This document shows positions 5,236 to 6,530 of a DNA stretch of 7,526 nucleotides, one piece after another. The translations under genes and the position numbers were made by a program. Source of the DNA: a virus (Duplodnaviria > Heunggongvirae > Uroviricota > Caudoviricetes); the IMG/VR virus record IMGVR_UViG_2545824711_000016; one strand, written 5' to 3'. The notes below the pieces were generated by a model. That model was not told the DNA's origin. It saw only the letters and a list, made by a program, of their open reading frames with translations, and ran no database searches. How positions within the stretch are numbered: the stretch's first letter is position 1; the number at the start of each line of letters is the position of its first letter.

Positions 5236-5780
5236 TAAACAGTATGTATATCATAGGTTATTAATTGTGAGTTTTTTCGGTGTGTTATTTGTTTGTTTGA
5301 TGTTATGCTTTTGCGCCCCAAAAGGTTGTTTAGATGTATTTTATCAATTGATTTTCAATATCGTTTAATAAAGAAAAATTAAGCAAGCTGGATGTTGGTT
5401 TTTTGTTAATTGAATGGTTCTAATAATGTTTTTTTACTGTTGTTGAATGTGACTTGATAAGAAATGCAAGTAAAAATGATACTCTTTTTATTTTAAATTC
5501 AAACGGTTGACATATATATAGCAAGAGGTTTCAGGTGCGTTGTAGTGAGTTTATGTTAATAAAAAGTATAGCAAGCGTTGAAAAATGTAACTTTGAAATA
5601 CGTTAGAATAAAAAACAATATACATATAATAATTTAATCTTAAATGAAATTTATTAAAATTTGCAAACTATAATTTTGTGTATAAAAATATAAATGCACA
5701 TCATCCTGATTATGATTGTGTATTTAATTGGTTGTTATTTGACTGCTATCAACTTGTTTTAATTTTATGATAGGTGCAAG
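5236..5780 (+). promoter_or_regulatory. Extremely AT-rich upstream region of appY with promoter-like hexamers
   Basis: About 545 bp with many A/T tracts. It contains a consensus TTGACA (5507-5512) and a consensus TATAAT (5669-5674), but these are not paired at 17-bp spacing, so the promoter assignment is tentative. An AGGTG Shine-Dalgarno motif (5771-5775) sits 5 nt before the appY ATG. Confidence 0.45.
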
Positions 5781-6530
5781 ATGGATTATGTTTGCTCCGT
5801 AGTTTTCATCTGTCAATCATTTGATTTAATTATAAACAGGAGAGTTATCTCGTTCAAAAAAAATTCATTATTTATTGTAAGCGACAAAATTAGAAGGGAG
5901 TTACCAGTATGCCCCTCTAAACTAAGAATTGTTGATATAGATAAGAAAACATGTTTATCCTTTTTTATCGACGTGAATAATGAGCTGCCTGGCAAATTTA
6001 CTCTTGATAAGAATGGCTATATTGCTGAAGAGGAACCTCCATTATCGCTTGTTTTTTCTCTGTTTGAAGGGATTAAAATAGCAGACTCACACTCCCTTTG
6101 GTTAAAAGAAAGACTATGTATATCCTTACTTGCCATGTTCAAAAAACGCGAAAGTGTAAATTCTTTTATACTAACAAATATAAATACATTTACCTGTAAA
6201 ATTACTGGAATAATCAGTTTTAATATTGAGCGGCAATGGCATTTAAAAGATATTGCGGAATTGATTTATACGAGTGAAAGTTTAATAAAAAAAAGATTAA
6301 GGGATGAAGGAACGTCATTTACTGAAATATTGAGAGATACTAGGATGAGGTATGCAAAAAAACTCATAACTTCAAACTCTTATTCTGTCAATGTCGTAGC
6401 CCAGAAATGTGGCTATAACAGTACTTCATATTTCATATGTGCATTTAAAGATTATTATGGTGTCACGCCATCTCATTATTTTGAGAAAATAATCGGCGTC
6501 ACAGATGGAATAAACAAAACAATTGACTGA
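5781..6530 (+). CDS. appY: AraC/XylS-family transcriptional activator AppY
   Basis: 249 aa. The C-terminal helix-turn-helix region (...[44 protein letters not shown]...[29 protein letters not shown]) is typical of AraC-family regulators, and the whole protein matches what I recall of K-12 AppY. The gene is very AT-rich. Confidence 0.88.

Follow-up and report, generated by a model that had tools for sequence, protein, structure and literature searches.

The AT-rich DNA ahead of the prophage-borne regulator gene appY: a probable counterpart of the H-NS-silenced promoter island of DLP12

The window, a stretch of 7,526 nt analysed as a whole, carries stf, tfa, ybcY, the tfaX remnant, appY and ompT::IS3 in this order and, to judge from its sequence, is the right end of an Escherichia coli lambdoid prophage of the DLP12 type. 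The tfaX remnant ends with a TAA stop codon at 5233–5235 and the appY ATG lies at 5781, with 545 bp between them. Homology of the remnant to the tfa copy stops at 5221 (blastn), homologous tfaX loci are annotated in RefSeq as ‘internal stop; incomplete’, and the remnant has an Rfam match to IS009 that falls below threshold. Over the whole window, an Rfam search with E-values up to 1 returned nothing but IS009, at the tfa copies, apart from weak matches attributable to chance; searches for tRNAs and for tandem repeats found none. The main features of the locus are as follows.

4975–5235, plus strand: tfaX remnant, a pseudogene for tail-fibre assembly, interrupted by a TGA at 5158–5160 (open reading frame list)
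5222–6774, no strand: appY cargo segment of ∼1.55 kb, a present/absent unit made of the AT-rich upstream DNA, appY and a 3′ spacer
5236–5780, no strand: AT-rich intergenic region (the spacer), the regulatory region of appY, from its 25.3% G+C and its identity with K-12
5315–6330, no strand: equivalent of promoter island PI 582438_1016, also named PI1 (tfaX/appY; PMC3661553, Table 1)
5781–6530, plus strand: appY, encoding an AraC/XylS-family activator of 249 amino acids, 31.7% G+C (RefSeq annotation)
6735–6763, no strand: G+C-rich hairpin between the convergent genes appY and ompT, inside the cargo segment

The same locus, with the same gene order, is the tfaX/appY island of DLP12 in E. coli K-12. 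The spacer is 99.1% identical to that of K-12 (99.4% over a 1.6-kb region), the primers published for the K-12 island map exactly to the window (5466–5484, 5521 and 5871–5888), and the spacer is found in 833–835 of 5426 complete E. coli genomes. Five substitutions separate it from K-12 (at 5567, 5572, 5601, 5619 and 5745), while the −35 TTGCAA and the −10 TAAAAAT discussed below are identical. Unlike K-12, the window prophage retains full-length stf, tfa and ybcY, and its ompT is interrupted by IS3. Island coordinates were converted on the assumption that the appY ATG corresponds to 582904 in PMC3661553; the relative numbering was checked with primer F1, whose position 5521 corresponds to −260.

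Assignment of appY to the AraC family, as made in an earlier note on this DNA, is borne out by Pfam matches to HTH_18 (3.9e-16, 59.5 bits, cut-off 33.6) and HTH_AraC (2.1e-11, 44.1 bits, cut-off 26.6), which place a C-terminal double helix-turn-helix at residues 159–235. Arginine is encoded by AGA or AGG in 11 of its 13 occurrences. The 8-bp AppY motif ATGSCWGM is absent from the region upstream of appY, which thus gives no sign of autoregulation; to our knowledge, none has been described for AppY. A scan of one genome per species for orthologues outside E. coli yielded only E. coli itself, a MAG that is probably contaminated and an unrelated, distant AraC-family protein of Alcanivorax with 36% identity over 77 residues.

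The spacer is exceptionally AT-rich over its 545 bp and appY is itself AT-rich, both as noted earlier and with correct coordinates. G+C content is 25.3% in the spacer, 31.7% in appY and 29% over 5236–6530, against 45.3% for the window and 52.3% for stf; the lowest value for any 545-bp stretch in the whole window and in four E. coli loci of 7–14 kb, 24.4%, falls inside the spacer. An A+T content far above average over hundreds of base pairs, as in xenogeneic loci, is therefore present. The description ‘A-tract-rich’ is true as far as it goes, with 19 A/T runs of at least 4 nt, but their excess over mononucleotide shuffles (13.6 ± 3.1) is not significant (p about 0.06) and the tracts lack helical phasing, AA/TT periodicity at 10–11.5 bp being absent from the spacer (p 0.14–0.46). 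A-tract richness is thus mostly explained by base composition. Likewise, the high-affinity H-NS motif TCGATAAATT, searched with up to two mismatches, is unenriched (10 matches in the window against 10.3 expected, two of them in the spacer). H-NS binding requires neither this motif nor phased curvature and also depends on AT-richness in general. Hexamers matching TATAAT in at least five of six positions are about seven times as dense in the spacer as in stf, yet their number (29) is that expected from composition (31.6 ± 5.7), and a promoter scan gave 11 sites against 10.1 ± 3.2 in shuffles. Since promoter-like hexamers are as frequent as composition predicts, they give no sign of selection for additional promoters.

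The actual promoter of appY, which the earlier note had regarded as unresolved, has in fact been published for K-12: the dominant start at −85/−81 (PMC4469952, PMC7054387) derives from TTGCAA and TAAAAAT. With a position −N corresponding to 5781−N, the published elements, and others read from the sequence, fall in the window as follows.

5507–5512, plus strand: TTGACA, at −274, with no partner −10 and not conserved
5655–5660, plus strand: TAAAAT, −10-like hexamer for the −114 start (assignment read here from the sequence)
5661–5666, plus strand: TTGCAA, −35 of the dominant appY promoter (published mutation, conservation)
5667, plus strand: RegulonDB appYp start, −114/−113 (PMC7054387, PMC4469952)
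5669–5674, plus strand: TATAAT, inside the 17 bp that separate −35 and −10 in the dominant promoter, and past the −114 start
5683–5689, plus strand: TAAAAAT, −10 of the dominant promoter, whose hexamer AAAAAT (5684–5689) lies 17 bp past TTGCAA
5696–5700, plus strand: main appY start, in published work predicted at −85 and placed at −81 ± 2 by primer extension
5744–5756, plus strand: proximal sigma-S promoter with a putative −10 and an in vitro start at −25 (5756)
5772–5776, plus strand: Shine-Dalgarno-like AGGTG, 4 nt ahead of the appY ATG

The 17-bp spacing between TTGCAA and AAAAAT is confirmed in the window, where 5696 lies 7 nt downstream of the −10. Mutation of TTGCAA to CTGCAA silences the reporter, and an 8-fold activation of an appY reporter was accompanied by a change of TAAAAAT to TATACT (PMC7054387). 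RNA polymerase (RNAP) forms open complexes at about −190, −155 and −90, and the in vitro appY transcript comes from the −90 complex III (PMC2731890). In chromosomal RNA, appY mRNA was undetected by primer extension (Shavkunov 2009, PMC2731890) and, according to the authors, the chromosomal start could differ (PMC4469952). The start at −25, obtained with sigma-S in vitro, is known here as quoted from Maciag 2011 in PMC4469952 and PMC7054387. Its putative −10 reads TGCTAT in the window, TACTAT in K-12 and TATTAT in one further allele (L010). With G instead of A at −11 of this promoter, the −25 start may not operate in the window allele; among 29 alleles, position 5745 is G in 15 and A in 14, with G in the window and A in K-12. 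The AGGTG ahead of the gene is conserved across all alleles and also, as TAGGT, in a plasmid paralogue described below. The leader fold (5696–5810) is ordinary compared with shuffles (z +0.47).

The earlier note rightly reported consensus hexamers, TTGACA at 5507 and TATAAT at 5669, that are improperly spaced, being 156 bp apart. That they mark one or more working appY promoters is very unlikely. Both are perfect matches to consensus, and TATAAT 5669 falls within the region of RNAP open complexes (PMC2731890) and is nearly invariant, with one variant among 29 alleles. Against this, neither the sequence nor the promoter scan offers a −10-like hexamer 16–18 bp past TTGACA, which reads TAGTCA in allele L010 and is affected by 2-bp deletions at or adjoining it in three others (L011, L038 and L042). 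A start from TATAAT 5669 would lie near −100, whereas the reported starts are at −114, −85/−81 and −25, and the plasmid paralogue has TTTATA in its place. The published mutations assign activity to TTGCAA and TAAAAAT, so that TATAAT falls in the spacer of their promoter (PMC7054387). The published start is unrelated to the two hexamers, the very outcome by which the earlier note would have given up this part of its proposal, and the hexamers are decoys. A second TATAAT lies at 5625.

The K-12 tfaX/appY sequence, 99% identical to the window, is the type example of promoter islands (PMC4469952, PMC3661553, PMC2731890), defined as stretches of at least 300 bp with at least 8 PlatProm-predicted starts per 100-bp running window (Shavkunov 2009). 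In K-12, PI 582438_1016 is listed as horizontally acquired and H-NS-bound in all three ChIP-chip studies compared (PMC3661553, Panyukov & Ozoline 2013) and is reported to be RNAP-bound (PMC2731890). Repression of appY by H-NS was documented genetically with hns mutants (Atlung 1996, as cited in PMC7054387 and PMC4676285; the repression is also cited in PMC10057817). Other regulators acting at the K-12 appY region are ArcA, DpiA, sigma-S, RcdA and Fur. In SELEX, the region is the top target of RcdA. It carries a Fur ChIP peak under anaerobic conditions (PMC4676285). For the ArcA box WGTTAATTAW, matches with one mismatch occur at 5404 and 5554, and the window total of 6 compares with 3.0 ± 2.2 expected; since 26 of 200 shuffles reach this total, the published ArcA site cannot be located from sequence. 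The suggestion that the locus is horizontally acquired and silenced by a nucleoid protein has thus been established experimentally, by H-NS binding and repression, in the 99%-identical K-12 sequence. Collectively, we regard the spacer as the long-studied, H-NS-silenced promoter island of DLP12, with a probability of roughly 0.85; the functional data come from K-12, many of them from plasmid reporters or linear DNA.

A different view of the silencing is given by the model of Bykov et al. (2020), in which RNAP acts as its own repressor through competing sites and H-NS is not the main agent. It draws on activated mutants in which many promoter-like sites had disappeared with no change in H-NS binding in vitro (PMC7054387), and on the several open complexes that RNAP forms on the fragment with little mRNA resulting (PMC2731890). 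Yet the activity-gaining mutants also had an improved −10 of the dominant promoter (PMC7054387), and the abundance of promoter-like hexamers in the spacer is, as described above, that of its composition. The argument is disputed by Fuqua & Wagner (2024), in whose large mutagenesis of islands only some 13% of the boxes proved to matter and nothing indicated that extra boxes repress (PMC11661796). With the genetic evidence from hns mutants in addition, RNAP as the main silencer appears improbable.

In the preferred reading, silencing by H-NS, the regulatory region would have been acquired together with the gene, as ∼1.55 kb of cargo at roughly 30% G+C, and H-NS would hold appY almost silent during growth. 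Because the spacer is so AT-rich, it would offer RNAP many −10-like sequences and H-NS a surface for nucleation and spreading. Productive transcription would start mainly near 5696, from the single sigma-70 promoter TTGCAA–17 bp–AAAAAT, and yield an 85-nt leader, with minor starts at 5667 (−114) and 5756 (−25, sigma-S in vitro) and the divergent antisense starts that have also been reported. The factors held responsible for induction by anaerobiosis, starvation, stationary phase and low pH are ArcA, DpiA, sigma-S and RcdA, with Fur as a possible addition; they would relieve or override H-NS, presumably by counter-silencing.

The antisense starts, at about −145, −214 and −225 (about 5636, 5567 and 5556), were seen with a reporter and by qRT-PCR on chromosomal RNA (PMC4469952). 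They raise the question of whether the spacer hides an unannotated gene, for a small protein or for a divergently transcribed RNA (Masulis et al. 2015). Small open reading frames do occur, such as 5694–5762 (22 hydrophobic residues) and 5420–5524 on the minus strand (34 residues), but they lack a Shine-Dalgarno sequence. In the 22-residue frame, all three substitutions between alleles are non-synonymous and the main start comes after the ATG (5694); on these grounds the small frames were rejected. As to an RNA, no Rfam family is found within 5236–5780 even at E-values up to 1, nor any tRNA, and the fold of the 85-nt leader is ordinary, as given above. Furthermore, the spacer is about as polymorphic as third codon positions, with segregating sites in 29 alleles at 47 of 545 positions against 27 of 250 (p 0.36). 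A hidden gene is thus highly doubtful. Purifying selection on the whole spacer, suggested by a single allele pair (4.4% divergence against a pS of 10.3%, p 0.009), is not claimed in view of the p value of 0.36 for the 29 alleles.

The description of appY as prophage cargo is upheld by its distribution. The cargo segment has the tfaX remnant on its left and the ompT stop codon on its right. In genomes with ompT and without appY, homology to the window is lost at 5004 or 5174 and regained at 6775 or 6777; about 2260 further genomes of the 5426 have ompT without the appY locus. In two such loci inspected, the slot is empty in one (L018) and holds an alpha/beta hydrolase gene in the other (L019). 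The segment is carried by the isolated phages Kati and PhiR68_2 and by a prophage at the icd site. Patchy presence and carriage by mobile elements, the other marks of a xenogeneic locus, are thus both observed. The hairpin at 6735–6763 has a fold z of −3.8 on both strands, with none of 200 shuffles as good, and is likely a two-way terminator, as predicted from its sequence.

Could the spacer and appY be a cassette of the transposon type, with 30-nt inverted repeats (5228–5257 and 6633–6662) at its ends? These repeats, which match at 23 of 30 positions, are the best in 5100–6800 and flank both elements, and the left arm begins 7 bp past the end of tfa homology. But an equally good repeat occurs in 11 of 200 block-shuffled sequences, the right edge of the present/absent segment is at 6775–6777 and not at 6662, and neither target duplications nor a transposase accompany the repeats. 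Such a cassette is extremely unlikely.

The segment can be compared with phage morons, cargo genes that lambdoid phages carry as autonomous units, each with a promoter and a terminator; bor and lom of lambda are examples. Like them, it is a discrete insert (5222–6774), with the tail-fibre module on one side and the int/att end on the other, present or absent among otherwise related prophages and phages; its composition is deviant (about 30% G+C against 41–52% in the flanks), and it has its own promoter, known from the literature, and a predicted terminator in the downstream hairpin. AppY has been discussed among morons (PMC10057817). Where morons encode surface or virulence factors, the cargo here encodes a global regulator of operons on the host chromosome, and its slot may alternatively hold the alpha/beta hydrolase.

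H-NS-silenced, AT-rich genes for AraC-family regulators on mobile elements are also known from Rns/CfaD, AggR, PerA and VirF, and the phage-borne PsrB and PatE are mentioned in PMC10057817. All resemble appY as low-G+C genes of the AraC family behind low-G+C DNA on phages or plasmids. G+C contents upstream of and within the coding sequence are 21% and 32% for an AppY paralogue on IncHI1B plasmids and 27% and 31% for the homologue of Lambda_ev203; the phage-borne AraC-type homologues examined share only about 30% sequence identity with AppY.

The island ahead of appY, its promoter, its regulators and its dependence on H-NS were already known, and few AT-rich, H-NS-bound promoter islands ahead of a horizontally acquired regulator are as well documented. 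The check matters little as discovery. Its use is that the published promoter elements and starts are placed on window coordinates, that A-tracts and −10-like boxes are shown to be as numerous as expected from base composition, and that the consensus hexamers are exposed as decoys. Small additions are the definition of 5222–6774 as a present/absent cargo unit, with its alternative occupants and its carriage by two isolated phages, the retention of TTGCAA-N17-GAAAAT without TATAAT in the plasmid paralogue, and the lack of any excess over composition in A-tracts, −10-like hexamers and H-NS motifs or of helical AA/TT phasing.

Comparison of upstream regions among appY carriers, proposed in the earlier note, adds a last point. 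TTGCAA and TAAAAAT are invariant in the 29 alleles, and the IncHI1B paralogue, with 67% amino acid identity to AppY, has TTGCAA-N17-GAAAAT at the equivalent place and with the same 17-bp spacing, a composite that arises in 18 of 20000 shuffles of the paralogue upstream region in a post hoc test. It is tempting, if speculative, to propose that a unit of TTGCAA-N17-RAAAAT, leader and Shine-Dalgarno sequence moves along with appY-type genes across phages and IncHI1B plasmids and is tuned by natural alleles, such as those at 5745. If so, strains would differ in the coupling of this phage regulator to stationary-phase and acid responses.

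By its ORFs, its Pfam domains and its megablast matches to complete E. coli genomes, the window is the right-hand end of a lambdoid prophage of the DLP12 type, with the following gene order.

258-3611: stf, full-length side tail fibre gene (ORFs, Pfam, megablast)
3611-4195: tfa, tail-fibre assembly gene
4250-4915, minus strand: ybcY, methyltransferase gene
4975-5235: tfaX remnant with an internal stop
5236-5780: spacer of 545 bp
5781-6530: appY, encoding an AraC-family regulator
6780-7181, minus strand: 3' part of ompT, cut by an IS3 element

Within the stf protein (1117 aa), a low-complexity Ala/Ser/Thr-rich region of several hundred residues is encoded by DNA of 59-66% G+C, in sharp contrast to the spacer 2 kb away (25% G+C). 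The intact ybcY encodes a class I SAM-dependent methyltransferase of 221 aa with Pfam methyltransferase domains; its K-12 counterpart is a frameshifted pseudogene. Rfam IS009 matches the tfa coding sequence (3954-4152, 223 bits) and, under the gathering score, the tfaX remnant (4998-5201, 107 bits); apparently, the model of this 'RNA family' was built on coding DNA of tail-fibre-assembly genes. At the right end (6780-7526), the 3' 402 bp of ompT are left and IS3 extends from about 7187 onward, a junction that, among 5426 complete E. coli genomes, only strain 510016 shares. Because of this truncation, the OmpT protease should be absent from the strain.

The AT-richness that the earlier note had ascribed to the spacer and to appY is borne out by computed G+C contents of 25.3 and 31.7%, respectively, versus 45.3% for the whole window and 52.3% for stf. 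Across the window and four further E. coli loci, the lowest G+C of any 545-bp stretch is located within the spacer. A/T runs of at least 4 occur at 3.5 per 100 bp, versus 1.0-1.5 in phage structural genes, so that 'A-tract-rich' holds as a description, but the 19 runs observed barely exceed what base composition yields (13.6 ± 3.1, P about 0.06). Helical periodicity of AA/TT dinucleotides was looked for in the spacer and none was seen. Hexamers resembling a -10 element are ∼7 times denser than in stf, their number (29) being that expected from composition (31.6 ± 5.7). The special features of the spacer therefore reduce to extreme AT content. The idea of a hidden gene or RNA within it finds no support in the sequence. 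The counts of -10-like hexamers weaken the proposal of Bykov et al. 2020 (PMC7054387) that surplus RNA polymerase sites, rather than H-NS, silence appY, since promoter-like boxes are no commoner than composition predicts; the large-scale mutational analysis that Fuqua & Wagner published later (2024, PMC11661796) likewise speaks against it.

The spacer and appY are present in about 830 of the 5426 complete E. coli genomes, and ompT occurs without the appY segment in about 2260 others. In appY-less genomes, homology to the window ends at 5004 or 5174 and returns at 6775-6777, the ompT stop codon, while tfa homology inside the window ends at 5221. These boundaries define 5222-6774 as a discrete cargo unit of ∼30% G+C that carries a promoter of its own and, at 6735-6763, a strong hairpin. 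A 30-nt imperfect inverted repeat (23/30 matching) at 5228-5257 and 6633-6662 flanks the spacer and appY and could suggest a transposon-like cassette; this reading is unsupported, the repeat probably being due to chance because 11 of 200 block shuffles equal it and its right arm lies away from the edge of the cargo unit. The hairpin at 6735-6763, missed by a simple terminator scan, is G+C-rich, has a z of -3.8 on either strand and separates appY from the convergent ompT. Genomes without appY carry another hairpin at the equivalent place, its stem being CCCCGGGG too. Cargo varies in this slot, which extends from the tfaX remnant to the ompT stop codon. In two ompT-bearing loci devoid of appY, it contains either no cargo gene and only ∼140 bp with a different hairpin (L018, 3862-4000) or a 1.5-kb alpha/beta hydrolase gene (L019, 2151-4004).

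The description of appY as prophage cargo, supported by this presence and absence among genomes, also agrees with the isolated phages Kati and PhiR68_2, where the ybcY-tfaX-appY-ompT module adjoins int. In NZ_CP148382.1, an appY region 94.5% identical (pS 0.10 and pN 0.014 for appY versus the window) resides in a different prophage, beside a truncated icd gene; therefore, the module moves between lambdoid prophages. A one-genome-per-species scan found no appY orthologue outside E. coli: one match, to a MAG contig, was dismissed as probable contamination, and the other non-E. coli match is an unrelated distant AraC-family member. A 3.3-kb contig of a 'Planococcaceae bacterium' MAG, DEQI01000113.1, has an appY with upstream sequence that is 99% identical, which almost certainly reflects contamination of the bin by E. 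coli. As side observations, appY is rich in rare codons (AGA/AGG for 11 of 13 Arg, ATA for 13 of 29 Ile) and a tRNA-Arg gene (argU, 557-633 of locus L001) adjoins the DLP12 prophage.

The spacer is 99.1% identical to its K-12 counterpart, the type example of a 'promoter island'. There, RNA polymerase binds and forms open complexes ∼190, 155 and 90 bp before the ATG, the last giving an in vitro transcript toward appY, and appY mRNA is almost absent in vivo (Shavkunov et al. 2009, PMC2731890). The island (582438_1016, tfaX/appY) lies within predicted genomic islands and is H-NS-bound in every ChIP-chip data set compared (Panyukov & Ozoline 2013, PMC3661553 Table 1). For repression of appY by H-NS, PMC7054387, PMC10057817 and PMC4676285 all cite Atlung et al. 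1996. Other reported inputs are ArcA, DpiA and sigma-S, together with RcdA, whose SELEX clones most often contained the appY spacer, and Fur, with an anaerobic ChIP peak at appY and a possible action against H-NS suggested by the authors (PMC4676285).

Published primers mapped onto the window (F1 starts at 5521 = -260; the 423-bp fragment of Bykov et al. is 5466-5888) set position -N at 5781-N. The mapped elements are as follows.

5661-5666: -35 of the main promoter, TTGCAA
5683-5689: -10 of the main promoter, TAAAAAT (hexamer AAAAAT 17 bp after the -35)
near 5696: main start (published -85 / -81 ± 2)
5667: start -114/-113 (RegulonDB)
5756: start -25 (sigma-S, in vitro)
about 5636, 5567 and 5556: antisense starts (Masulis et al. 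2015, PMC4469952)

Masulis et al. 2015 (PMC4469952) found one sense start, at -81 ± 2 (predicted -85). This -85/-81 promoter gives the highest yield in the island; mutation of its -35 from TTGCAA to CTGCAA silenced the reporter, and a -10 change from TAAAAAT to TATACT accompanied 8-fold activation (Bykov et al. 2020, PMC7054387). The earlier note was right that TTGACA (5507-5512, at -274) and TATAAT (5669-5674) are improperly spaced, being 156 bp apart, and no -10-like sequence was found 16-18 bp after TTGACA. Given the published elements, TATAAT lies between the -35 and -10 of the main promoter, downstream of the -114 start. Neither hexamer is related to any mapped start, an outcome that the note itself had named as counting against them. 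The one question that the note left open, which promoter is used, already has an answer in print, TTGCAA/TAAAAAT, without TTGACA or TATAAT.

The upstream comparison that the note had suggested finds this core promoter kept. TTGCAA and TAAAAAT are invariant across 29 appY alleles (from chromosomes, two isolated phages, IMG/VR contigs and the divergent icd-site prophage); TTGACA is TAGTCA in one allele, and three others have 2-bp deletions at or adjoining it. In one allele pair (window versus the icd-site copy), spacer divergence is below synonymous divergence (4.4 versus 10.3%, P 0.009). With the 29 alleles, polymorphism in the spacer (47/545) did not differ from that at third codon positions (27/250, P 0.36), and conservation is therefore claimed for the core promoter elements only. 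A paralogue of AppY on IncHI1B plasmids of E. coli (67% aa identity; CDS 32% and upstream 21-25% G+C) has TTGCAA-N17-GAAAAT at the equivalent distance, and both the start region and the Shine-Dalgarno sequence that follow are similar; the sequence between the two elements differs and TATAAT is not conserved. In a post hoc test, 20000 shuffles of the region upstream of the paralogue produced this composite 18 times. All four copies examined (L005 3750-4726, L012-L014) have IS1 ∼250-300 bp upstream. Distant phage-borne AraC-type homologues (∼30% identity) are likewise low in G+C, at 31-35% in the genes and 27-38% upstream.

Position 5745 is G here and A in K-12, and of the 29 alleles 15 have G and 14 have A; the hexamer 5744-5749 is TGCTAT in the window, TACTAT in K-12 and TATTAT in the icd-site allele. 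Should this hexamer be the -10 of the -25 start, 5745 would be position -11, and its G would make the proximal sigma-S promoter weaker in the strain.

Collectively, the observation of an AT-rich region upstream of appY is confirmed, and its interpretation as a horizontally acquired, nucleoid-protein-silenced locus is essentially right and already established for K-12 by H-NS ChIP-chip and repression. In the standard and best-supported account, the sequence-level parts of which come from this analysis and H-NS binding, starts and regulators from the K-12 literature, H-NS would bind the AT-rich cargo DNA and keep appY nearly silent. Productive transcription would come chiefly from the TTGCAA/TAAAAAT promoter, and environmental regulators would raise appY expression, probably by countering H-NS.
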